NCBI GenBank assembly: GCA_040387835.1
Contig: JAZKCZ010000002.1
Coordinates: 115,431 to 179,430 of the forward strand
Direction: 5' to 3'
Length of the DNA stretch: 64,000 nucleotides
DNA from: Myxococcota bacterium
Lineage (GTDB): Bacteria > Myxococcota > UBA727 > JABDBI01
Part shown: positions 8,997-21,363 of the stretch, piece by piece
Layout of the letters: each line of letters opens with the position of its first letter
How positions within the stretch are numbered: position 1 is the stretch's first letter
The notes under the pieces: model-generated
What the model was told of the DNA's origin: nothing
The model's database searches: none
Seen by the model: the letters and a program-made list of their open reading frames with translations, nothing else
Translations under genes and position numbers: made by a program

Positions 8997-9527
8997 ATGA
9001 CTCCTATTGAACTTGAAATTGGTATGGGAAGAGCCCATTTTTTATTTGAACGTGCTCAAGCAGAGCCTGAGCATCAAATCGTTGGCATTGAATACAAAGC
9101 CCAATGGGTTACCCAAGCGCTAAAAAAACAACATCGTGAACAAATTTATAATGTGACACCAATTCACGGAAATGCGTGGGACATTGTTCCGAAACTATTT
9201 GGACCAGAAAGTCTAGATTTGATCATTGTTAACTTCCCAGACCCTTGGTGGAAACGCAGGCATCACAAACGACGCGTCTTAAACGACAAGTTTATGAAAA
9301 TCCTGCTCCCGATGATGAAGCCCGGAGCGCGGTTTTTCTTTCAAAGTGACGTTAAAGAGCTTTTTGACGTGTATGATCAGCTCCTTTCAGCCTATCTCAC
9401 TAAGGTGCCTTGCGACGTGAACCCGTTGGGAGCGAAATCACACAGAGAGAAAAAATGCGAGGAATCCGGCTTGCCAATATATCGCACGTTGCTCTACAAG
9501 AATCCTCATGTCCAGGCCACAACATGA
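8997..9527 (+). CDS. trmB: tRNA (guanine-N7)-methyltransferase
   Basis: ELEIGMG, GIE, NFPDPW.K.RHHKRR, SD motif. Confidence 0.9.
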   Translation: MTPIELEIGMGRAHFLFERAQAEPEHQIVGIEYKAQWVTQALKKQHREQIYNVTPIHGNAWDIVPKLFGPESLDLIIVNFPDPWWKRRHHKRRVLNDKFMKILLPMMKPGARFFFQSDVKELFDVYDQLLSAYLTKVPCDVNPLGAKSHREKKCEESGLPIYRTLLYKNPHVQATT

Positions 9528-12399
9528 GACCCTTGTTCATCTAAGTAATTCCCGAGCAGCGTCGATGCCAACGCGTGCAGCTTACGAATTTGTTGAAATG
9601 GACGATTCAGAGCAAAGTCTCTCTTATGCAGCCATCGATTCCAAGGCACGCGCCATTGCGGTGGCTCTAAAAGAACAAAAACTTGAGGGCGAGCGCGCGT
9701 TATTGCTGTACGCCCCAGGTCTCGATTACATCACAGCCTTATGGGGCTGCTTTTATGGTGGCGTGACGGCGGTACCAGCTTATCCACCTGATCCAGGTCG
9801 TTTAGACCGAACCTTGCCCCGCCTCATGAATATAGTCGACGACTGTGAAGCGGCCGCCATTTTATCTACAAGCCTCATCCAAAGTTTTGGCGAAGCCAAG
9901 TTACCAGGCAAATGGATCGCTACCGATACAATCGAGCAAGACTTGGCCTCTTATTGGTCAATGCCTAAAATCAATGGCGATACGCTGGCCTTGTTGCAAT
10001 ACACCTCAGGATCAACCGGCTCTCCCAAAGGGGTCATGCTCACGCATCAAAATATCTTGGTTCATGGCGCTTACGTGGAAGACGATGCAAGACTGCATCA
10101 ATACTCGAGAGCCGTTGCTTGGCTACCACCTTATCATGACATGGGGCTGGTCGGCAGCATCATCCAACCCATGTACACCGGCTTTTTATCCACGCTGATG
10201 TCACCGCTGGATTTTCTATCAAACCCTTACAAATGGCTTAAATTACTATCGGACAAGAAAGGCGAAATGAGCGCCGCACCCAATTTCGCCTACGATTTAT
10301 GCACCAGGCGGGTTAGCGAAGAAAAGAAAGCCACCCTCGATTTAAGTAACTGGAAATTTACGATCAACGGCGCAGAACCGGTCAAGCTCGAAACCATGCA
10401 AAACTTCACAAGGGCCTTCGAGTCCTGTGGATTTAAAATGGAGACTTTTTTCCCTTGTTACGGCCTAGCAGAAAGCACGGTCTACGTCTGCGGAGGCTCT
10501 CAAACCGGCGTTCCCAAAGTCAAAGACGGTTTTGTCAGTTGCGGCAAACCCAAAGACCCGTCCATGATCCAAATCAGAGACGGCGAAGTCTGTCTTAAAA
10601 ACGACTACCTTTCGAGCGGCTATTTTAATAAAGCCGAAGACAACCAAAAAGTCTTCAAAGATTATTTCTACACCGGTGATTTGGGCTTTATCGAAAATGG
10701 CGAACTATTTATTACCGGCAGAAAAAAAGACCTGATTATTATCAGAGGCCGCAACTACTATCCTCAAGACATTGAACAATGCGTCGAAAAATCCAGCGCT
10801 AATGTGCGTAAAGGCTGCACCGCAGCATTTTCTATCAGCACAGGCGCCACCGAAGGCCTAGGTCTCGTGGCTGAGTTATCAAACCCTGCCCTTGAAGAAG
10901 AAACAGCTGCGGCCGTCCGGCACGCCGTCAGCTTAGAATTCAATCTAAAAGTGGCAGCGCTCAAGTTTATCCCCGCAAAATCCATTCCAAAAACATCCAG
11001 CGGTAAAATACAACGCTATGCCTGCCGTGAATTGGTAACCATGGATGCATCAGTCAAAAGCATCTTAGGCTTGGATGCTTTAGCCAACATTGAAGAAAAC
11101 AAACCCCTGGTGTCCTACGGCTTAGACTCCTTGATGCGTCAAGAGCTATTGGTGACCTTAAATCTACCAGGCGATACGGTGATCGATGAAAACACAACCC
11201 TAGCCTCATTAAGAGAGCTTCCTGTTTTGGCGGCCAAAAAATCAGAGCCGCCCCGTAAAGCCAGCCAACCGTGGAGCATAAAAAGCCAGATTGAGCTTTT
11301 AGAAAGCACAGGTCTTAAAAATCCATACTTTATCCCGCTAGAAGATCGCTCCTCGGTCAACTTCTCTAACTATAATTATATCGGCCTAGCCGGCCATCCC
11401 GAAGTGTCAGCCGCTGCCAAGGAGGCCATTGACCAATACGGCACTAGCGTATCCGCCAGCAGACTGGTTTCAGGCGAGCGGGTTTTGCACCAAAAGCTTG
11501 AAAAGAAAATCGCAGATTTTATCGGCGTCGAAGATGCAATCGTTTACGTTGGAGGCCATGCCACCAATGTTGGGACCATTAGTCATCTCTTTGGGCCTGG
11601 CGATTTAATTCTGCATGATTCCCTGAGTCACAACAGTATCTTAGAAGGCTGCAAACTATCTGGCGCTAGAGCGATGCCTTTTACGCATAATGATCCAGCC
11701 AGCTTAGAAAGACTGCTGATAAGCCATCGCGCCAACTTCGCCCGTGTCTTAATTGTGATTGAAGGCGTTTACAGCATGGACGGCGATATTTCCGACCTGC
11801 CTGCTTATGTCCACTTAAAAAAAGCCCACGATGCCCATCTCATGGTCGATGAAGCCCATTCCATCGGCGTCTTAGGCAAGACCGGCCGAGGCTTATCAGA
11901 ATACTGCGGCGTAGATCCCAAAGACGTCGATTTCTGGATGGGGACACTCAGTAAATCACTCGCCAGTTGCGGCGGGTACATCGCTGGCGCGCATGAAGTC
12001 GTCGAATATCTACGATACACATCCCCAAGCTTCGTCTATAGTGTTGGCATCTCCCCGCCTAATGCCGCAGCTGCCCTGAAAGCCTTCGAAGTGCTAGAGC
12101 GCGAACCCGAGCGGCTGGTCCGGCTCAATGCAAACGCTAAGCGCTTTATATCGTTATGCAAAGCGCGTGGTATCAATACTGGCCTCAGCAATAACTCAGC
12201 CGTTATTCCAATAATTATTGGCAATTCTTTGGGAACGTTACAGTTATCCGAACGATTACTTTCTCAAGGGATTAATATCAGACCGATTATTTATCCTGCG
12301 GTTGAAGAACATTTAGCCAGGTTAAGAGTTTTCATGACTTCGGAGCATACTGACGGCCAAATCGAAGAAGCGGTGGCGCATCTGGCGAGCAAGCAGTAA
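9508..12399 (+). CDS. Fusion of fatty acyl-AMP ligase, acyl carrier domain and PLP-dependent alpha-oxoamine synthase (SPT/BioF family)
   Basis: LQYTSGSTGSPKG, WLPPYHDMGL, YGLAE, TGDLG, KTSSGK; GLDSL (Ser codon 11128-11130); NYNYIGL, HNS, DEAHSIG, GTLSK. Confidence 0.9.
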   Translation: MSRPQHETLVHLSNSRAASMPTRAAYEFVEMDDSEQSLSYAAIDSKARAIAVALKEQKLEGERALLLYAPGLDYITALWGCFYGGVTAVPAYPPDPGRLDRTLPRLMNIVDDCEAAAILSTSLIQSFGEAKLPGKWIATDTIEQDLASYWSMPKINGDTLALLQYTSGSTGSPKGVMLTHQNILVHGAYVEDDARLHQYSRAVAWLPPYHDMGLVGSIIQPMYTGFLSTLMSPLDFLSNPYKWLKLLSDKKGEMSAAPNFAYDLCTRRVSEEKKATLDLSNWKFTINGAEPVKLETMQNFTRAFESCGFKMETFFPCYGLAESTVYVCGGSQTGVPKVKDGFVSCGKPKDPSMIQIRDGEVCLKNDYLSSGYFNKAEDNQKVFKDYFYTGDLGFIENGELFITGRKKDLIIIRGRNYYPQDIEQCVEKSSANVRKGCTAAFSISTGATEGLGLVAELSNPALEEETAAAVRHAVSLEFNLKVAALKFIPAKSIPKTSSGKIQRYACRELVTMDASVKSILGLDALANIEENKPLVSYGLDSLMRQELLVTLNLPGDTVIDENTTLASLRELPVLAAKKSEPPRKASQPWSIKSQIELLESTGLKNPYFIPLEDRSSVNFSNYNYIGLAGHPEVSAAAKEAIDQYGTSVSASRLVSGERVLHQKLEKKIADFIGVEDAIVYVGGHATNVGTISHLFGPGDLILHDSLSHNSILEGCKLSGARAMPFTHNDPASLERLLISHRANFARVLIVIEGVYSMDGDISDLPAYVHLKKAHDAHLMVDEAHSIGVLGKTGRGLSEYCGVDPKDVDFWMGTLSKSLASCGGYIAGAHEVVEYLRYTSPSFVYSVGISPPNAAAALKAFEVLEREPERLVRLNANAKRFISLCKARGINTGLSNNSAVIPIIIGNSLGTLQLSERLLSQGINIRPIIYPAVEEHLARLRVFMTSEHTDGQIEEAVAHLASKQ

Positions 12400-12806: not shown

Positions 12807-14180
12807 ATGAACCTGTTTAGAACCAAAGCGATTGGCGAAATCGAACAAGAAAACGGCGGCCTTAAACGATGCCTCTCGGCTGTAGATGTGACCTTTTTAG
12901 GTATTGGCGCGATTATCGGTGCTGGCATCTTTGTACTTACAGGTGTGGTCGCAGCCACCCACACGGGACCAGCCATCGTCCTGTCCTACATTGTCGCAGG
13001 GCTAGCATGCGTTTTCGTTGCGCTGTCTTACGCCGAACTTGCAGCTAGTATTGGAGGCTGCGGGAGTGCGTATGGCTACGCTTACGCAGGCCTGGGTGAA
13101 ATTATTGCTTGGATCATCGGCTGGGATTTGCTGCTTGAGTATGGGCTTGGCATTTCTACCGTTGCAGTTGGCTGGTCCGGTTACGCCAAAAATGCTTTGT
13201 CAGCGATGGGCGTTGAGCTTCCCGCAGCGTTTGTGAACAGCCCGTCAGAAGGTGGATATATCAATCTGCCGGCGGCTTTGATTATCTTGCTTATCTCCGT
13301 CTTACTGTGTGTGGGCGCCAGAGAAAGCTCTCGGTTTAACACGGTCATTGTGTTTATTAAGCTCATCGCCATTGCCGTATTTATTGGCATCGCGTCGTTT
13401 CATGTTGAACCAGCGAACTGGTCCGTATTCGCGCCGTTTGGTTGGAACGGCGTGATGCAAGGTGCTGCGCTGGTATTTTTTGCCTATATCGGCTTTGACG
13501 CGGTATCTACAGCAGCAGAAGAAACCATAAACCCACAGCGCAATCTGCCGATCGGAATTATTAGCTCACTAGCCTTTTGCACGGTTATTTATATCATCGT
13601 GTCGGCTTTGCTCACGCTGGTTGCCCCCTACGGCGAACTCAACGTAAAATCGCCAGTCGCGGAAGTCTTGCTGAATTTAGATCACCGAGTAGCAGCTGGT
13701 ATTATTTCAGCTGGAGCAATCGCCGGGTTAACGACCGTCATGCTGGTGCTATATTATGGATTTTCGCGGGTCTTCTTGGCAATATCTCGTGATGGGCTGC
13801 TGCCAATGCGGTTTTCCCGAATCAATCCTAAAACTCAAACACCAACCGGTATTATTCTTGTAAGCGGCGTCGTCATGGCTGTCATTGCCGGGTTAACACC
13901 TATCGGTAAACTTGCAGAGCTTGTTAACATTGGAACTTTAGCGGCTTTTGTGTTGGTATGCGGCGGCGTGATTGCATTGCGCATCAAGAATCCAGACATG
14001 CCAAGGCCTTTTAAACTTAGCTTTCACCCGCTGATTCCCGTACTGGGCATTATCTTTTGTGTGTATTTAATGCTGAGCCTGCCATTCGAAACATGGCTAC
14101 GATTCATTGTTTGGATGGCTATCGGCTTGATTCTCTATGCTGTTTATGGATACCGAAACAGCGTAGAAGGCAAGCGTTAG
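12807..14180 (+). CDS. APC-superfamily amino acid permease (cationic amino acid transporter-like)
   Basis: GAIIGAGIF, GSAYGY, FAYIGFD, AEE...P.R..P, 12 TM pattern. Confidence 0.92.
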   Translation: MNLFRTKAIGEIEQENGGLKRCLSAVDVTFLGIGAIIGAGIFVLTGVVAATHTGPAIVLSYIVAGLACVFVALSYAELAASIGGCGSAYGYAYAGLGEIIAWIIGWDLLLEYGLGISTVAVGWSGYAKNALSAMGVELPAAFVNSPSEGGYINLPAALIILLISVLLCVGARESSRFNTVIVFIKLIAIAVFIGIASFHVEPANWSVFAPFGWNGVMQGAALVFFAYIGFDAVSTAAEETINPQRNLPIGIISSLAFCTVIYIIVSALLTLVAPYGELNVKSPVAEVLLNLDHRVAAGIISAGAIAGLTTVMLVLYYGFSRVFLAISRDGLLPMRFSRINPKTQTPTGIILVSGVVMAVIAGLTPIGKLAELVNIGTLAAFVLVCGGVIALRIKNPDMPRPFKLSFHPLIPVLGIIFCVYLMLSLPFETWLRFIVWMAIGLILYAVYGYRNSVEGKR

Positions 14181-14758
14181 ACAAACTTGGAGATAATCCC
14201 TACCACTTCTTCCGCTTTATGTAAGAAGTCCTGGCGACTATCTACGACAAAGTGATTCGGGTGGTTTTTCCAAACTTCGAAGGTTTTCTGATCAAGCAAG
14301 GCAGCTTGCTCCGGTGCTTCATTACGCGCCGGATTATTATGATTGAAGCCCCATTCGATCGAAGGCGTGCGCATATGGATGACCATGGCGTAGCGGCTCA
14401 ACTCTTCTTCTTCTGTAGTGCCCACGCTAGCAAAAAAGTCTTCTTTAGAGCCTGGCCAATAAGCTAGGCCATCGAGCACACCGCGGTCACATAAACCAAC
14501 CGGCGCGATCTGATCTTCTTCCAAAATGCGCTCTTGTTCGCGCTGAATATGATAGATCGAGCGCTGCGCTGCCCGAATGGCACTGGGCGTTTGGTGCCTT
14601 AAAAATCCACCTGAATAGATCATGGTCGCTGCTTCATGTAAAACCACCACTTTGTCTTGAAACATATGTTTGGCCATTTCCAACACAGTGGTTTTACCGG
14701 CACCTGGGCCGCCAGTTAGGACAATAAGCTTTGAATGACTTTCAGATAATGTTGGCAT
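14177..14758 (-). CDS. NadR/Ttd14-like (AAA_28) P-loop NTPase/kinase
   Basis: LTGGPGAGKTT, HEAA, CDRG.LD; ATG at 14758 lies inside the end of the aminotransferase. Confidence 0.8.
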   Translation of the reverse strand: MPTLSESHSKLIVLTGGPGAGKTTVLEMAKHMFQDKVVVLHEAATMIYSGGFLRHQTPSAIRAAQRSIYHIQREQERILEEDQIAPVGLCDRGVLDGLAYWPGSKEDFFASVGTTEEEELSRYAMVIHMRTPSIEWGFNHNNPARNEAPEQAALLDQKTFEVWKNHPNHFVVDSRQDFLHKAEEVVGIISKFV

Positions 14759-15882
14759 AATTGTTCCGATTGAACCCATAGGGGATGCGAATGAGAAAAT
14801 AGACAGAATGATTCATTTAGCAGCTTTCGAGCATTTGGAAAGGCGGAGCCATCAAATCCTAATTTTTGGAATAAAGTCTGCTCCGGAACGGTCTTGCTCT
14901 GCCATTGCACAGCCTCAAGACCATGCTGACTCAGCAGGCCCATCACTTGATCGCGCTGCTTCGCTCTCACGCGATATTTGTGATAAACGCTGGTCCTGCC
15001 TACAATTTCGCCAGGCGGTTCAATCGCATTTAAGCCTATTAAGCCAGCATTTAAGATCGCAGCATTAGTTCGTGCGCGTTCGTTCCAGAAATCCAAACGC
15101 TTTAATTGCGTCCTAGCCAGCGCGGCCGTTAACTCAGGCATGCGATACATATATCCAATGCTTACTGAATCATAAGACCGCTTCAAATCAAGAGGCCTAC
15201 TCGGATCAAACACAGAGGTGTCAGACATTTGGATATTTTCACCGAACATTCTAAACCTAGCTGCTCGCTGATAACAGGTTTCATCGTTAGTAACGAAAAG
15301 ACCACCTTCGCCAGCCGCCAGGTTTTTTGACGACTGCAAACTAAAGGCAGCCACTTTGCCAAAGGAGCCTACTTTTTGGCCATGGTAAGTTGCACCATGA
15401 GCTTGGCAAGCATCTTCAATCACCATCAAATCATGCTGGCGCGCAATGGCAAAAATGGCATCGATATCACAAGGCATGCCATGCATATGCACCGGCATAA
15501 TGGCACGTGTCTTTGGCGTAATTGCCCTTTTAACGCAGGCAGGATCTAAGCCTAGACTCCCCAGCTCAATATCAACAAATACCGGTGTGGCACCTTGCTG
15601 CAGTACCGCCATCGCAGAAGCCACGAAGGTAAATGCTGGCACAATCACTTCATCGCCAGGGCCAATACCAATGGCCTCAAGCCCCATATGCAATGCGGCC
15701 GTCCCACTATTAGCGCTCAAGCAATATTTAACGCCTAAGTAAGCCGCAAACTCACGTTCCAAAGACGTGACTTCTGGTGCCAGGGGCCCAGACAAAATGC
15801 CTCGCTCCAGAACATCCAAGACAGCCTGTTTATCCGCGTCAGTAATAACAGGCCAAGACTGATGTTTTAAGCTTTCAGCCAT
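14716..15882 (-). CDS. DegT/DnrJ/EryC1/StrS-family PLP aminotransferase
   Basis: SGTAALH, EDACQAHG, SLQSSKNL..GEGG, YRM.E..AA. Confidence 0.92.
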   Translation of the reverse strand: MAESLKHQSWPVITDADKQAVLDVLERGILSGPLAPEVTSLEREFAAYLGVKYCLSANSGTAALHMGLEAIGIGPGDEVIVPAFTFVASAMAVLQQGATPVFVDIELGSLGLDPACVKRAITPKTRAIMPVHMHGMPCDIDAIFAIARQHDLMVIEDACQAHGATYHGQKVGSFGKVAAFSLQSSKNLAAGEGGLFVTNDETCYQRAARFRMFGENIQMSDTSVFDPSRPLDLKRSYDSVSIGYMYRMPELTAALARTQLKRLDFWNERARTNAAILNAGLIGLNAIEPPGEIVGRTSVYHKYRVRAKQRDQVMGLLSQHGLEAVQWQSKTVPEQTLFQKLGFDGSAFPNARKLLNESFCLFSHSHPLWVQSEQLCQHYLKVIQSLLS

Positions 15883-17033
15883 GCCTGCAAACTCTCGTCT
15901 TGTTTAAATAAGTTATGCTCTACCGGTCGACCAGGCATTTGATAGGGCGCCTTAAAAAACAACGATAGCTGCTCTTGAACTCCAGAGCGTCCTTGACGCT
16001 TGGCCAAGTCAATAAAACGAACCAAATCGAGCACCAAAGGCGCTGCTAGAATCGAGTCTTTGCACAAAAAATTGACCTTGATTTGCATTTTCTCGCCCAA
16101 AAAGCCGGAGATATCAATGTTATCCCAGGATTCTTTGGCATCACCGCGTGGCTTATAATAATGGATATGCACCTGATGATCCTCAACAGGATATCCCAAT
16201 ATGCTGTCTAGCACGCTCATTTTGCTGGTGACCTTGGTTTTATTGGACTCGGGATCGTTTAACACCAAGCCATCGTTGTTGCCCAAAATATTGGCAGAGT
16301 ACCAGCCATCCACTTTCAGATTACGCACCGCAAACATTGGCGCCAATGCAGTTTTAAGAAGCGTCTGGCCAGTTTTACCATCTTCACCAGCTAGCGGAAC
16401 GCCGTTTTTAATCGACATCTCTTGCAGTGCCGGAATATTACTTAGACTTGGCGTAAAGTTTACATAAGGCACGCCACTATCAATGGCAGCATATAGATAC
16501 TTCATGGCCGGTGAAATGCGTTCATCGTTTGCATCAAGGCCTGCTTCAAATGCTGCCAAGGTGCGATGCACATCTGTCACTTCACAGAACTTTTCGGTCG
16601 AAGTCAAATTGACCATCACCAACCGCTCAAGACCCTGACCTGTTTTGAACACAGCCATGTCTTTTTTCATTTGAGCAATTTCTTCTCTAAAAGAGCTACA
16701 TGCCAAAATATTTTTGCCGCTCATGCTGTGCAAAAAGCGCTTCGAAACAGCTGCCTTCCATGGCTTAAAGCTGCTCAAATCGTCTCGCACCAGATTCAGT
16801 AAGTGAGCTGGCAGAACTTCATGGGAAAGCGCAGCTTCATAGGCAGTGTCTTCTCTTAAATCCCAGCCACCGAACCTCAAATCATCGAGTGCGGTCACGT
16901 CAAGACCAACGGTCTCGCTCATCATCCCTTGTCTGGGAGCCAGATTCTTTCGCATCAAAGCAACGCCCGCCATCACGGTTGTAGAAACGGCGCCACTTGC
17001 TCCAATTAAACAGATACCTAATTTTTGACTCAC
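15867..17033 (-). CDS. ino1: myo-Inositol-1-phosphate synthase
   Basis: GASGAVSTT, YVNFTP, GEDGKTGQT, NILGNNDG, SK, DSILAAP..LDL, FFKAP. Confidence 0.92.
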   Translation of the reverse strand: MSQKLGICLIGASGAVSTTVMAGVALMRKNLAPRQGMMSETVGLDVTALDDLRFGGWDLREDTAYEAALSHEVLPAHLLNLVRDDLSSFKPWKAAVSKRFLHSMSGKNILACSSFREEIAQMKKDMAVFKTGQGLERLVMVNLTSTEKFCEVTDVHRTLAAFEAGLDANDERISPAMKYLYAAIDSGVPYVNFTPSLSNIPALQEMSIKNGVPLAGEDGKTGQTLLKTALAPMFAVRNLKVDGWYSANILGNNDGLVLNDPESNKTKVTSKMSVLDSILGYPVEDHQVHIHYYKPRGDAKESWDNIDISGFLGEKMQIKVNFLCKDSILAAPLVLDLVRFIDLAKRQGRSGVQEQLSLFFKAPYQMPGRPVEHNLFKQDESLQAWLKA

Positions 17034-18583
17034 GAAACCTGCTCCTTGTTAATAAACTGTGTAACCAAATCGCACTTTTGCTGATCGATAATTCGGGGAA
17101 ACTTACTTTGGACGCTTCTAAATCCTAGTCGATCCATAATCTTTTGAACGGACCCTGAAAGAAGTTTGTGTGAAACCGGAGGAAGAATCGCCACATCGCT
17201 TAAACGATGTTCACGATAAACTCGATTTTGAATTTTAAGCTCATCGTCAATGGCGGTCATAAATAGATTCAAATCCATCGGCCTTTTTTCAAACTCAAAG
17301 AAAAATTGGTAACGACCTTTCCCAGAAGCGTCAACACCCACTTCTGGGCCGACACAATACTCAACAATAGAACATGAAAATTGAGATTGAGCCTTCGCAA
17401 CGGCCTTTTCGATTTCCACATAAGTAGTCAGTTCTTGAGTCAAAGATAAAACGCCGCTAGGCCTGCCCACAAATTCCATTCGATGCGGATAAACAGAATT
17501 AAACCGAACAAAATCGCCAATATAATAGGCGAATAATCCCGACGACGTGGTCAAAACAATCGAGTAATCTACGCCTGGCTGGACTTCCCACAGCGCCAAA
17601 CGAGGCGCATCATCTCGCCCATGCTTCTCCCTAGGCACAAACTCGAAAAACACCCCTCGATCCGGGATCATCAACAGAGCACGATCCTCCAAATGATCGG
17701 TCACCGAAAATAGCCCACCCTCAGTCGCATTGTAATTATCCATCAAGATAATATCGCGTCCAACACGCTCGTTAATGAGCCTGCGATAAGGATTAGCATT
17801 AACCCCGCCACCAAAAAGCACTCTCAAATTAGGCCATATTTCCTGAATGGTTCGGACGCCGCGGTGCGCCAAAAGCTTGTCGAAAAAAATCGAGAACCAG
17901 CAACTTGTTCCCGAAATCGCGTGCACGTCATAATCCCAGTAGTTCTCTGCGATTGCTTGTAACTTTTGGTTATAGTCCAAAATATCTCGCACGGAAGGCT
18001 TAGGAATCGCCATCGGCCGCGCCAAAGCGGGCAACTCCCGAAACATAATCCCCGGATTTGACCCGGTGAACACGCCGTTTCCTTCCGATTTCAAGACGCT
18101 AGGCGGAAACAACCCCAAGTTATAGCCCCCAACAAAGCCTCTGTCTTTGCTAAGGCGTAGGTACTGAGCAATCACGTCAAACGCAGCTTTCTGCTGCCAG
18201 ACAATCTGCTCTTTCGAAATAGGTAAAAATTTATTCTGCGCGGCGGTTGCTGAAGTACCTGAAGACTGGCCGTAATACGAAATCAGCCCTGGCCAAAGGA
18301 TATCGCGCTCGCCCTGTCTCATCCGCTGGATATAAGGCTCAAACCCAGCATATGGCCTTAAAGGCGTTGCCCTCTTAAAATCAGCATAAGTTTTTACTTT
18401 GGCAAAACCATGCGCCTGACCAAACTCAGTTTCAGCTGCCGTTTTGCAGTGAGACAGCAAGATTGATTCCTGGGTTTTTTGAAGCCGACCTTGTGTTAAA
18501 TTCCCTAGCCACTGATTAAGCCGTCGCCTCGCCAATAGTCCTAAGACTGGATTCAATGCACGAGCCGCGGCAAAACTTTTCAT
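17030..18583 (-). CDS. GH3-family acyl-adenylate/amido synthetase
   Basis: SSGTS, YNATEG, YYIGD motifs; alternative GTG start at 18595. Confidence 0.9.
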   Translation of the reverse strand: MKSFAAARALNPVLGLLARRRLNQWLGNLTQGRLQKTQESILLSHCKTAAETEFGQAHGFAKVKTYADFKRATPLRPYAGFEPYIQRMRQGERDILWPGLISYYGQSSGTSATAAQNKFLPISKEQIVWQQKAAFDVIAQYLRLSKDRGFVGGYNLGLFPPSVLKSEGNGVFTGSNPGIMFRELPALARPMAIPKPSVRDILDYNQKLQAIAENYWDYDVHAISGTSCWFSIFFDKLLAHRGVRTIQEIWPNLRVLFGGGVNANPYRRLINERVGRDIILMDNYNATEGGLFSVTDHLEDRALLMIPDRGVFFEFVPREKHGRDDAPRLALWEVQPGVDYSIVLTTSSGLFAYYIGDFVRFNSVYPHRMEFVGRPSGVLSLTQELTTYVEIEKAVAKAQSQFSCSIVEYCVGPEVGVDASGKGRYQFFFEFEKRPMDLNLFMTAIDDELKIQNRVYREHRLSDVAILPPVSHKLLSGSVQKIMDRLGFRSVQSKFPRIIDQQKCDLVTQFINKEQVS

Positions 18584-18594
18584 GGAGCAGTGCA

Positions 18595-19251
18595 CTAACG
18601 GATCTTAATCGATTGATCCACACCCACTTTGGGACATTTCTTTTGCACAGGACAGCCAGGACAATTTGGCTTTCTGGCGTGGCAAATGCGCCTGCCGTGA
18701 AAGATAAACGCATGATGTGCTTCTAATAACCTGTCTTTAGGAAATAATTTCGTTAAATCCGTTTCAACTTTGGAAGGGTCTTTTTCGGCGGTTAAACCAA
18801 GTCGCCGGGCAATACGCCCGACATGGGTGTCTACCGCGATGGCCTGCACGCCAAAAGCATTGGCCAAAATCACCGCGGCGGATTTTGGGCCGACGCCCGG
18901 GATGCTCTCCAAAGCGTCTCGCTCTTTAGGCACGGCTCCACCAAAATCAGTCATGATTTTCTTACCAGCTAAGACGAGATTTTTGGATTTCATCCTAAAA
19001 AATCCCAACGTTCGAATATAGGGCTCGATATCCGCTGGTGTTGCCTGACTGAAAGCTTTGGCATCAGGGTATGCCTCAAATAAATCCGGCGTTACTTTGT
19101 TGACAGCTTTATCGGTTGTCTGCGCCGATAGCGCCACGGCCACCAAAAGTTGCCAGGGGTCTTTCTTATCATAATCCAGCTCAATTTCCGCATCGGGGAA
19201 TTCAGCGCAAATGGTATCTAAAAAATATAGGGCTTTGGCTTTAGAGGTCAT
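18595..19251 (-). CDS. nth: Endonuclease III
   Basis: LSAQTTD, HhH PGVGPKSA, VDTHV.R, C-x6-C-x2-C-x5-C Fe-S motif. Confidence 0.95.
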   Translation of the reverse strand: MTSKAKALYFLDTICAEFPDAEIELDYDKKDPWQLLVAVALSAQTTDKAVNKVTPDLFEAYPDAKAFSQATPADIEPYIRTLGFFRMKSKNLVLAGKKIMTDFGGAVPKERDALESIPGVGPKSAAVILANAFGVQAIAVDTHVGRIARRLGLTAEKDPSKVETDLTKLFPKDRLLEAHHAFIFHGRRICHARKPNCPGCPVQKKCPKVGVDQSIKIR

Positions 19252-20302
19252 GGGCTATTTTTTCTGCGAAGCCTTTAAAGCGACCATCCGCTTTAATATG
19301 AAACAAAGTTTCATTGGGCTTGCGCAGATAAGCAATACCAATAATATTTGGCTCCGTATCTGTAAATCCAAAAAGAGAAATATGCTCAGGCATTCCTGCG
19401 CTGGAGGTGGTTATATCGCAAGGCATCGGCCCAAACACTTCACCAGCTTTAGCGGCTTTAATGCGCTCCGCATGATGCTGCACATCCTCAGGCGACGCAA
19501 AATAAACGGTATTATATCGGCCAGCTGGTAGATGACTCATGCTGACGGCTTCACTGGTCACTTTGGGCTGGCCGAACACTTTTTGCACAGCATGTTGAAT
19601 TGCCAGTTGAATCTCTTGATCGCTTTGAAACGCCCGGGTTCTAACACAAACGAGTTCTCGATCAGCCAAAAGCCTTTTCGCCTCTGCCTGCGCCTTTTCG
19701 ATGTTCGCTTCTTCAAAATGGAGCCTTTGGATTGGCCATTCACTCAACGAGGCAGAATCGCAAGATGGTAAGTCGATCAACTTTATCGCTGGCTCAGCAT
19801 CTATATCAGTATGGTCAATATTATATCCGGCGCGTCCGTTGCCAAATACGATCAGCTGGATGGGCTGGTCGAAGCGGCGATTTGCTAAATTGCCATAGGC
19901 TAATTCGAAAGCAAACTGCTGGTCTGTGACAGGCGCGGTATCAAGATCTAGGGCGATGAAGAGGTCGGCTGTGGGGTTTGTGCGCCACTTAGATCTCGGG
20001 AGGGTGGTTAGCCAGCCGGAACTTCTGCCCTGCTTTTTTAAAGCAGAGATATCTTGCAGAGTGGTTTTAGCGTTGCCGGATTTACTCGCATCGATGAGAT
20101 AGAATTCGCCTCCATGAGCGACGCAGAAGGTTTTTACATTTCGATGTTGTACCCAGGATTGGATTAGGCTTGCGGCGCGATCGATTCCATTTTGGCAATT
20201 AGGATCGTCGGTCAATCCTAAGGTGTAATTTGAAAAAAATGCTAACGAGCGCGGATTATTCAAATAAAAATCCCGCATGGGCTCATGCTGCCAGTGCATC
20301 AT
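19241..20302 (-). CDS. Hypothetical protein
   Basis: 353-aa ORF overlapping both neighbours in the same orientation; no family recognised. Confidence 0.65.
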   Translation of the reverse strand: MMHWQHEPMRDFYLNNPRSLAFFSNYTLGLTDDPNCQNGIDRAASLIQSWVQHRNVKTFCVAHGGEFYLIDASKSGNAKTTLQDISALKKQGRSSGWLTTLPRSKWRTNPTADLFIALDLDTAPVTDQQFAFELAYGNLANRRFDQPIQLIVFGNGRAGYNIDHTDIDAEPAIKLIDLPSCDSASLSEWPIQRLHFEEANIEKAQAEAKRLLADRELVCVRTRAFQSDQEIQLAIQHAVQKVFGQPKVTSEAVSMSHLPAGRYNTVYFASPEDVQHHAERIKAAKAGEVFGPMPCDITTSSAGMPEHISLFGFTDTEPNIIGIAYLRKPNETLFHIKADGRFKGFAEKIAHDL

Positions 20303-21344
20303 GGACTAACCTCTGGAAGTGTTGCACGCCATTTTCTTTGGCAAGAACTAACTGACCTTGTTCGTAGTAACCTGACGCACAACCACGTTGCACAGCTTCG
20401 CATAAAGCCGTGTCTTCTTTTTGAACTTGGTCTAAAAAATCGACCACGCTGTCTTTGTCACTTTCTGTCACACCTTCGGGGAAGTAAATATCGTAAATGG
20501 CCAACGTTTTGTTCGGAGATATTGGCTCATAAACCGTGCTTGAAACATTCACGATGCCCGGATAGATATTGATGGTAAAGTTGGGCCATAAATAGGACCC
20601 AGCGCCGCGCAGTTTTTTATCCGCGTCTGCCATCTCAGCACCTTTCAACGTACAACGTTGCACTGAATGATAGGCATAAGGCGTCACTTCATAATCATCC
20701 ATGCGGACGATTTTCACCAACTCCGGATGTGCCACCGGGCAATGATAACATTCCAAATAATTATCAATGGTAAGCTTCCAGTTTGCATGGATTTCGTAGC
20801 GCATCTGCCGGTGATGCTTCAGGCTCATTAAATCAATGCCGATTTCAGAAATCGCTTCAGGAAGCCCGTCCATCTGTGACGCAAACGACTGTGGCGCCTC
20901 GAGCAAGCTCACAAACACAAATGGCCCCCATTCTTCGACCGTCAAAGGGTGCAAGGGATAATTGGACTTCATAAACTTGGGATCCGAGTTTGTGGCAGGA
21001 GCCGATTGCAAATCCCCTTGCAGATTCCAAGTCCAAGCGTGATAATGGCACTGGATGCTCTTGCGATTGCCTGACTCGCACAAAACAATTTGGCTACCTC
21101 GATGCCGGCAAACATTGACGAATGCGTTCAAACTGCCTGCTTCGGTACGCACCACAATCACCGGCACTTTTCCAGCAACTCTGCAGGTTATGTAATCGCC
21201 TGGATTTCTAAGCAGATGAGCCGAACCCGCGTAATTCCACATTTTTGAAAAAATATATTTTTGTTCTGAATCGAATATTTCCTGCGAAGTATACCAATGC
21301 CCCGGTATCGTCTTACCACTAAGTAATTGCTCGCTTAAACTCAT
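20283..21344 (-). CDS. Rieske non-heme iron oxygenase alpha subunit (choline monooxygenase-like)
   Basis: CRHRG...CHYHAW Rieske motif, NWK...NYLECYHC..AH, ED...CE.VQ.G. Confidence 0.9.
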   Translation of the reverse strand: MSLSEQLLSGKTIPGHWYTSQEIFDSEQKYIFSKMWNYAGSAHLLRNPGDYITCRVAGKVPVIVVRTEAGSLNAFVNVCRHRGSQIVLCESGNRKSIQCHYHAWTWNLQGDLQSAPATNSDPKFMKSNYPLHPLTVEEWGPFVFVSLLEAPQSFASQMDGLPEAISEIGIDLMSLKHHRQMRYEIHANWKLTIDNYLECYHCPVAHPELVKIVRMDDYEVTPYAYHSVQRCTLKGAEMADADKKLRGAGSYLWPNFTINIYPGIVNVSSTVYEPISPNKTLAIYDIYFPEGVTESDKDSVVDFLDQVQKEDTALCEAVQRGCASGYYEQGQLVLAKENGVQHFQRLVHDALAA

Positions 21345-21363
21345 GCGAAGGCAACAAACCATC

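Follow-up and report, generated by a model that had tools for sequence, protein, structure and literature searches.

A conserved GH3-MIPS-DegT gene trio of Myxococcota predicted to form an inositol-derived aminocyclitol amide

What is made by a group of genes that joins a GH3-family acyl-acid amido synthetase to a myo-inositol-3-phosphate synthase (MIPS) and a DegT/DnrJ/EryC1-family aminotransferase? This combination is encoded in the stretch of DNA analyzed here (the window; 64,000 nucleotides, positions 115431 to 179430 of contig 2) from a Myxococcota bacterium, whose genome of 1.83 Mb in four contigs is 96% complete with a GC content of approximately 48%. Its nearest relatives are metagenome-assembled genomes (MAGs) labelled Myxococcaceae, Myxococcales or Deltaproteobacteria. 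The three genes form a conserved cassette, and we propose that they would act together with an unlinked gene pair encoding a GMC oxidoreductase and an aldehyde dehydrogenase (ALDH) and with a housekeeping-type inositol monophosphatase. As the product, we predict an inositol-derived aminocyclitol amide, which would most likely be an N-acyl-inosamine amphiphile located in the cell envelope.

Four open reading frames (ORFs), all on the minus strand, fill positions 14177-18595 of the window, the last of them encoding an AAA_28 (NadR/Ttd14-like) P-loop protein. A preliminary description of this DNA had listed them as four genes with overlapping boundaries and intact motifs, and the ORFs, junctions and domains were all confirmed. 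GH3, MIPS and DegT are translationally coupled: the GH3/MIPS junction, read directly, is a GTGA at 17033-17030 with AAGGAG upstream, and the MIPS and DegT coding sequences overlap by 16 nt (15867-15882, likewise read directly). The overlap of DegT with AAA_28 is 43 nt from the start at 14758 and 64 nt from an alternative start at 14779 (ORF 14177-14779). An alternative GTG start at 18595 was also found for GH3 (ORF 17030-18595). The co-directional gene string extends upstream, as the stop codon of the endonuclease III gene nth lies 11 nt before GH3, and nth is preceded by overlapping, co-directional genes for a carnitine-acyltransferase-like protein and a Rieske oxygenase. Simple scans for promoter and terminator signals at the locus gave nothing above the shuffled expectation.

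To place the locus among its relatives, an alignment of 24 GH3 homologues was used to scan one genome per species, which yielded 80 loci, all related loci being from MAGs. The neighbors were judged by tblastn with the window proteins, and a locus was counted as informative when its contig allowed this judgement. The preliminary description had staked its proposal on the three genes occurring together elsewhere, and they do. In 62 of the 77 informative loci, MIPS is the next gene downstream of GH3, and in 57 of the 58 in which there is room for it, DegT is the gene directly after MIPS. The trio loci come from MAGs labelled Myxococcaceae, Archangiaceae, Polyangiaceae, Sandaracinaceae and Kofleriaceae. 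On a maximum-likelihood tree of GH3, the MIPS-linked state requires 8 changes, compared with a mean of 17 after shuffling, and none of 500 shuffles was as low. Among 301 species sampled evenly across the phylum, 25 had a GH3 match, with the best MIPS match adjacent in 15 of these; MIPS itself was found in 169. With this order of GH3, MIPS and DegT repeated in dozens of species, the arrangement is far beyond chance.

The window GH3 groups on this tree with three other loci (L001-L003), with two low-GC MAGs (L004 and L019) as their sister group. L019 (JABDAE010000026.1) is a MAG labelled Chlamydiae with 40% GC, and carries ALDH-GMC, GH3-MIPS-DegT and an LPG_synthase_TM gene. Its grouping with the window's clade reflects either a mislabelled bin or a transfer.

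The functional unit is a self-contained cassette of the three genes GH3-MIPS-DegT, not of four genes. A position after DegT is seen for AAA_28 only in the clade of the window (L001, L002 and G145); the remaining 59 trio loci lack it. The family to which the source genome belongs comprises 21 genomes of 0.3-3.4 Mb, of which 17 lack the cassette. AAA_28 orthologues are present in all four trio-bearing members (67-79% identity), and also in G048 and G120 (67-74%), which have no GH3, MIPS or GMC orthologue. In G048, AAA_28 (from approximately 8146) begins approximately 20 nt after nth (L090 8171-8830) and no gene separates the two, so that this locus represents an empty site for the trio. Deletion of the trio in G048 and G120 is the simpler history, because one genus holds both the trio-bearing and the trio-less states and the insertion point is common to trio-bearing genomes of four genera. 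Homologues of AAA_28 with 53-55% identity occur in unrelated contexts in Hyalangium gracile and Labilithrix luteola. Thus, AAA_28 is an older neighbor of nth that flanks the cassette, and not a conserved cassette member or a pathway enzyme.

The genomes of this family are all small, several being 0.3-0.6 Mb at 87-91% completeness, though their NCBI labels are myxobacterial. Small genomes throughout the family suggest a host- or prey-dependent lineage.

Table 1 Coordinates of the cassette, its flanking genes and the unlinked partner genes in the source genome.
Feature	Location	Strand	Length	Remarks
GH3-family acyl-acid amido synthetase	window 17030..18583	-	517 aa	ATG 18583 in public gene call
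MIPS (myo-inositol-3-phosphate synthase, EC 5.5.1.4)	window 15867..17033	-		PF07994 and PF01658
DegT/DnrJ/EryC1-family aminotransferase, pyridoxal phosphate (PLP)-dependent type	window 14716..15882	-		PF01041, 331 bits
AAA_28 (NadR/Ttd14-like) P-loop protein	window 14177..14758	-	193 aa	PF13521, 78 bits; ATG 14758 in public gene call
nth (endonuclease III)	window 18595..19251	-		TIGR01083, 232 bits, above cutoff; upstream flank of cassette
ALDH-GMC pair	contig C4:66285-69625 (L083 8283-11641)			directly after ribosomal protein genes S6 and L9
IMPase-family gene	C2:675270-676055			unlinked; 164 bits to inositol-1-monophosphatase model, below cutoff 332

We then considered what each enzyme of the cassette is likely to do. 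The N, M and C domains of GH3 (PF03321, PF23571 and PF23572) scored 109, 56 and 51 bits, each above the Pfam cutoff of 23.6. The nucleotide-binding motifs SSGTSATAAQNK, YNATE and GLFAYYIGD are present, of the motif types SSGTSxGxxK, YxxSE and GLYRYxxGD (PMC12493201), and their core residues are invariant across the 24 homologues. Sequence matches in the PDB were plant GH3 structures only. The NCBIfam model of OlsH (NF052613) matched GH3 over its full length with 279 bits, and its equivalog cutoff of 620 was not reached. OlsH, a GH3-like lyso-ornithine-lipid synthetase, catalyzes the ATP-dependent N-acylation of ornithine with fatty acids (PMC12493201), and a 2026 review expects OlsH homologues to use other amines (PMC12971839). 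GH3 is therefore best described, from its family and motifs, as a predicted ATP-dependent amide-forming enzyme. The N-acylation of an amine by GH3, as proposed in the preliminary description, gains a precedent with fatty acids from OlsH and stands here as a prediction.

MIPS contains the domains NAD_binding_5 (PF07994, 232 bits) and Inos-1-P_synth (PF01658, 123 bits). The segments GEDGKTGQT, NILGNNDG, KTKVTSK, DAKESWD, DSILAAPLVLD and FFKAP align with 1U1I and 7NWR, and we take them to be the active-site Lys and Asp segments of the Archaeoglobus fulgidus enzyme. Judged by these segments, MIPS looks catalytically intact. Its scores were 322 bits to 7NWR (BT_1526), the MIPS function of which has been demonstrated (PMC9246714), and 224 bits to A. 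fulgidus MIPS. It is the only copy in the source genome, and the identification of an intact inositol-phosphate synthase in the preliminary description holds. No phosphatidylinositol-phosphate (PIP) synthase was found in the genome, in which the CDP-alcohol transferases are only PgsA-like and PssA-like; this rules out the canonical use of MIPS for inositol phospholipids. Within the family, MIPS is restricted to the four GH3-bearing genomes. With one MIPS gene, no PIP synthase, and MIPS never found without GH3 in the family, the supply of inositol appears to be dedicated, and the inositol is probably used for the amide.

In larger genomes, the cluster MIPS (60-68% identity to that of the window) is an extra paralog beside common copies (46-52%). 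Many large genomes (9-13 Mb; genera g63, g47 and g90) have two MIPS copies with approximately 50% and 46% identity to that of the window, and these two tiers hint at a further specialized MIPS paralog unrelated to GH3.

DegT has an SxxK motif of the PLP-lysine type in SLQSSKNLAAGEGG and an EDACQAHG motif. The best PDB match was 7B0D, titled 'glutamine--scyllo-inositol transaminase', with 227 bits, followed by QdtB (209), perosamine synthase (196) and BtrR/RbmB (185-190). The cassette contains no nucleotidyltransferase or 4,6-dehydratase gene for forming nucleoside diphosphate (NDP)-sugars, which fits the aminocyclitol reading of the preliminary description, and a second DegT paralog is encoded elsewhere in the genome. 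From family and context, DegT is predicted to convert inosose to inosamine.

A route from inositol phosphate to inosose requires enzymes beyond the trio, and the genes neighboring GH3 in the 80 loci were clustered into families. The ORF clusters c4, c10 and c11 obtained first were antisense shadow ORFs in high-GC loci and were discarded. The recurrent neighbors encode a GMC oxidoreductase (37 of the 62 trio loci), ALDH (33), an IMPase-family phosphatase (28), an MMPL-type transporter (26) and a flippase-like LPG_synthase_TM membrane protein (17). None of these genes is present at the window's locus. In the source genome, ALDH and GMC form an unlinked pair, an IMPase-family gene is also unlinked (Table 1), the single LPG_synthase_TM gene is unlinked, and no MMPL homologue was found.

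The ALDH of the pair (620 aa) abuts or slightly overlaps the GMC gene, with which it is translationally coupled, and the two proteins are 49% (ALDH) and 58% (GMC) identical to the cluster-linked versions. Of the 21 family genomes, the four with GH3 and MIPS, and no others, have a GMC orthologue (65-71% identity), on a different contig from the trio in each; among the other 17, one has a 27% paralog only. That genes lying apart are present and absent together in this way is the best evidence for a common function of the GMC-ALDH pair and the trio. Across the phylum, the GMC profile was uninformative, as the family is too rich in paralogs, and solved structures gave distant matches only, which were uninformative on the substrate. 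A search with the Gfo/Idh/MocA model (PF01408), the only dehydrogenase family checked, gave no match in the 96%-complete genome, while the control was positive in all 14 reference genomes; an inositol dehydrogenase of this family is thus ruled out as the oxidation enzyme. Because GMC is co-inherited with the trio and no Gfo/Idh/MocA dehydrogenase is present, this flavoenzyme is the best candidate for the oxidation step, if inosose is made. The pathway scheme of the preliminary description, which led from glucose-6-phosphate over inositol phosphate directly to the amine, lacked the phosphatase and oxidation steps and is amended here in this respect.

Several features of these partner genes were observed in addition. 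The C-terminal extension of approximately 180 aa in the ALDH of the source genome had no Pfam match even at E = 10. In high-GC relatives, ALDH is unfused (approximately 510 aa), and a neighboring GMC-like protein has an N-terminal extension of approximately 160 aa (L012 6235-8094); no similarity was detected between the two extensions. In the family genome G127, the GMC orthologue was found twice, on contigs C4 and C8, with identical scores and nearly the same coordinates, which is probably a duplicated contig in the assembly. GH3 paralog loci without MIPS and DegT retain ALDH in 5 of 15 cases, and GMC is also kept. One of them (L046 9983-16942) encodes ALDH, a GMC oxidoreductase and a cytochrome P450, and resembles an omega-oxidation set that feeds the GH3 ligase; it may be a sister system in which the amine is different.

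Combining these results, we propose the following pathway. MIPS would cyclize glucose-6-phosphate to inositol-3-phosphate, a step for which the identity of the enzyme is well supported. The phosphate would be removed by the IMPase-family phosphatase, the gene of which is unlinked here and linked in other genomes. The flavin-dependent GMC oxidoreductase, a candidate by its co-inheritance and by the lack of Gfo/Idh/MocA, may oxidize a ring hydroxyl to give inosose. DegT would transaminate the ketone to inosamine, and GH3, by analogy with its family and OlsH, would adenylate a carboxylic acid and transfer it to the amine. The ALDH partner may supply the acid from an aldehyde, and a fatty acid as the acid partner is the weakest link of the scheme. 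The family-level identities, intact motifs, conserved gene order, behavior as a cassette, co-inheritance of GMC, and lack of Idh and of the alternative inositol sinks checked are observed. We infer the product, the acid partner, the oxidation enzyme and every substrate from the sequences. The proposal that the cassette turns glucose-6-phosphate into inosamine, with GMC as the candidate for oxidation, and that GH3 joins an acid to it to give an N-acyl-inosamine is one that we hold tentatively, with slightly more doubt than belief.

Several points weigh against this proposal. DegT matches NDP-sugar aminotransferases about as well as inosose aminotransferases by score, and only the context favors a cyclitol. 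GH3 falls below the cutoff of the OlsH model (279 against 620 bits), so that, as far as this score tells, its substrates differ from those of OlsH. Gfo/Idh/MocA was the only alternative dehydrogenase family checked. MMPL homologues are lacking in the genome, and the single LPG_synthase_TM gene lies away from the cassette. The MIPS-less GH3 paralog loci keep both GMC and ALDH, which suggests that these two enzymes may produce the acid partner instead. The cassette is also dispensable, given that 17 of the 21 family members live without it.

The product might be soluble rather than a lipid, that is, an aminocyclitol amide serving as a signal, a rhizopine-like nutrient, a compatible solute or an antibiotic-like compound, for which GH3 would take a short, aromatic or otherwise non-lipid acid. 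Rhizopines based on scyllo-inosamine and the aminocyclitol amide of hygromycin A are precedents for such compounds. The lack of an exporter or flippase at the locus and of an MMPL homologue in the genome, together with a patchy distribution within the family like that of accessory metabolism, is compatible with a soluble product, and plant GH3 enzymes use hormone-type acids (PMC12493201). However, the nearest characterized bacterial relative by NCBIfam model is a lipid enzyme that uses fatty acids, genes for MMPL and LPG_synthase_TM proteins are repeatedly found beside the trio in other genomes, and the genes for resistance, regulation or tailoring that typify antibiotic clusters are missing from the recurrent neighbors. 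We consider a soluble product unlikely. By analogy, a lipid is favored, because the similarity to the OlsH model, the N-acylation with fatty acids by OlsH and the MMPL and LPG_synthase_TM neighbors in other genomes point to the envelope.

Another possibility concerns the role of the oxidases within an aminocyclitol amide pathway. GMC and ALDH, with a P450 in the paralogous loci, would oxidize an alcohol via the aldehyde to the acid used by GH3, for example by omega-oxidation to a dicarboxylic chain, while another enzyme makes inosose; the product would then carry an unusual acid. ALDH needs an aldehyde, which inositol chemistry does not supply, and its coupling to GMC in this genome, its retention in GH3 loci without MIPS and DegT (5 of 15) and the GH3-ALDH-GMC-P450 set of L046 are in line with such a role. 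On the other hand, cyclitol oxidation would be left without a candidate in a 1.8-Mb genome lacking Gfo/Idh/MocA. The GMC profile, which equals that of MIPS and GH3 in the family, also counts against it, though it is compatible with either role. We regard this assignment as decidedly unlikely.

It is also conceivable that the three enzymes share no pathway: GH3 would form an N-acyl amino acid in the manner of OlsH, MIPS would supply inositol for another envelope component, DegT would make an amino sugar, and their adjacency would reflect co-regulation of envelope genes. The GH3 enzymes characterized so far take amino acids as the amine (PMC12493201), DegT is as similar to NDP-sugar enzymes as to inosose enzymes, and MIPS often occurs in the phylum where GH3 does not (169 against 25 of 301 species). 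Nevertheless, the genes keep their order and close coupling in 57 of 58 loci from different families, the trio was gained and lost as one block, and MIPS is absent from every GH3-less genome of the family. The genome also has no PIP synthase to use the inositol and a second DegT paralog available for sugar work, and the cassette has no nucleotidyltransferase or 4,6-dehydratase. Three separate functions are thus, in our view, very improbable.

Finally, we give hardly any credence to the four-gene version, in which AAA_28 is the dedicated kinase or self-protection enzyme of the pathway, as the preliminary description had suggested: the 43-nt overlap with DegT, the same position in the three closest relatives and the confident small-molecule-kinase fold speak for it, but the orthologues in G048 and G120 without GH3, MIPS or GMC, the direct succession of nth and AAA_28 in G048, the absence from the other 59 trio loci and the unrelated contexts in the cultured Hyalangium and Labilithrix species led us to reject AAA_28 as a pathway kinase. 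The AlphaFold (AF2) model had a predicted local distance difference test (pLDDT) value of 91, and the best Foldseek matches were thymidylate and deoxynucleoside kinases with template-modelling (TM) scores of 0.6-0.7, a generic nucleotide kinase fold. A PADLOC scan gave weak P-loop matches only. As modelled, AAA_28 would be a small-molecule-kinase-like protein, tied to the trio pathway by co-transcription alone.

Other genes near the cassette were also inspected. The region 9508-12399 on the plus strand of the window encodes a single polypeptide of 963 aa consisting of a fatty acyl-AMP ligase (FAAL), a carrier and an alpha-oxoamine synthase similar to serine palmitoyltransferase. In the Kofleriaceae loci L007 and L021, such a gene is located immediately upstream of GH3 on the same strand. 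A larger locus with this protein as an obligate partner was rejected, as its family profile differs from that of the trio: full-length orthologues are present in the trio-less G139 and G143 and missing from the trio-positive G127 and G145, and the gene adjoins the trio in 4 of 80 loci.

On the other side of nth, the minus-strand region 19241-21362 contains the Rieske oxygenase gene, the N-terminal half of which is GbcA-like (164 bits, far below the cutoff), overlapping a truncated choline/carnitine O-acyltransferase-like gene (353 aa). The pairing suggests metabolism of quaternary amines (carnitine, choline or betaine). It does not occur at the same position in L001 and L002.

If the proposed pathway is correct, an aminocyclitol would be a new head group among bacterial amino lipids, and bacterial GH3 enzymes would have a second demonstrated job after OlsH. 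A function would be assigned to a gene trio of many uncultured myxobacteria, together with a flavin-dependent route to inosose. The literature searched for GH3-MIPS-aminotransferase combinations in myxobacteria, inosamine in Myxococcus, and acyl-inosamine or aminocyclitol lipids contained no description of such a system. The broader claim, that N-acyl-inosamines are an undescribed class of phosphorus-free envelope lipids made by a portable cassette in approximately 5% of the sampled species of the phylum, with GMC performing the cyclitol oxidation, and with the persistence of the pathway in this 1.8-Mb lineage, which probably depends on hosts or prey, pointing to a function at the cell surface, is possible, with doubt clearly the larger part. 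The window represents the smallest version of the system, three genes with an unlinked two-gene partner and a natural empty site, and is convenient to synthesize and express.

The proposed system can be compared with three known ones. In the OlsH/OlsI pathway of Singulisphaera acidiphila, which leads to an amino lipid free of phosphorus, a GH3-like bacterial enzyme couples a fatty acid directly to an amine at the expense of ATP (PMC12493201). The window GH3 resembles OlsH in its nucleotide-binding motifs and its full-length match to the OlsH model. In contrast to OlsH, its operon partners are MIPS and an aminotransferase and not ornithine-lipid genes, and the predicted amine is therefore a cyclitol amine rather than an amino acid. 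As for OlsI, no alpha/beta-hydrolase was found among the annotated recurrent neighbor clusters, in which no search with the OlsI sequence was made.

The inositol-lipid cluster of Bacteroides (BT_1522-BT_1526) contains the closest solved relative of the window MIPS (7NWR, 322 bits), and an LPG-synthase-like membrane protein accompanies both the Bacteroides clusters and clusters of the trio type (PMC9246714 for the former). Unlike the Bacteroides pathway, the source genome has neither a PIP synthase nor a PIP phosphatase, and the GH3 and DegT of the trio have no counterpart there.

The classical entry routes to aminocyclitols are those of streptidine (StsC), rhizopine (IdhA and MosB) and hygromycin A. 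The last comprises the MIPS Hyg18, the phosphatase Hyg25, the dehydrogenase Hyg17 and an aminotransferase, and links the aminocyclitol to an acid by an amide bond. These routes likewise start from MIPS or inositol, proceed by oxidation to inosose and use a DegT-family aminotransferase to form inosamine. On sequence grounds, the trio system belongs to neither the OlsH group nor the classical aminocyclitol group, as its GH3 lies below the OlsH cutoff and the source genome has no NAD-dependent Gfo/Idh/MocA dehydrogenase. Unlike the classical routes, it has a flavin-dependent GMC oxidoreductase as the candidate for oxidation and a GH3 ligase predicted to form the amide, and it is found in Myxococcota with lipid-transport neighbors rather than in an actinomycete antibiotic cluster.

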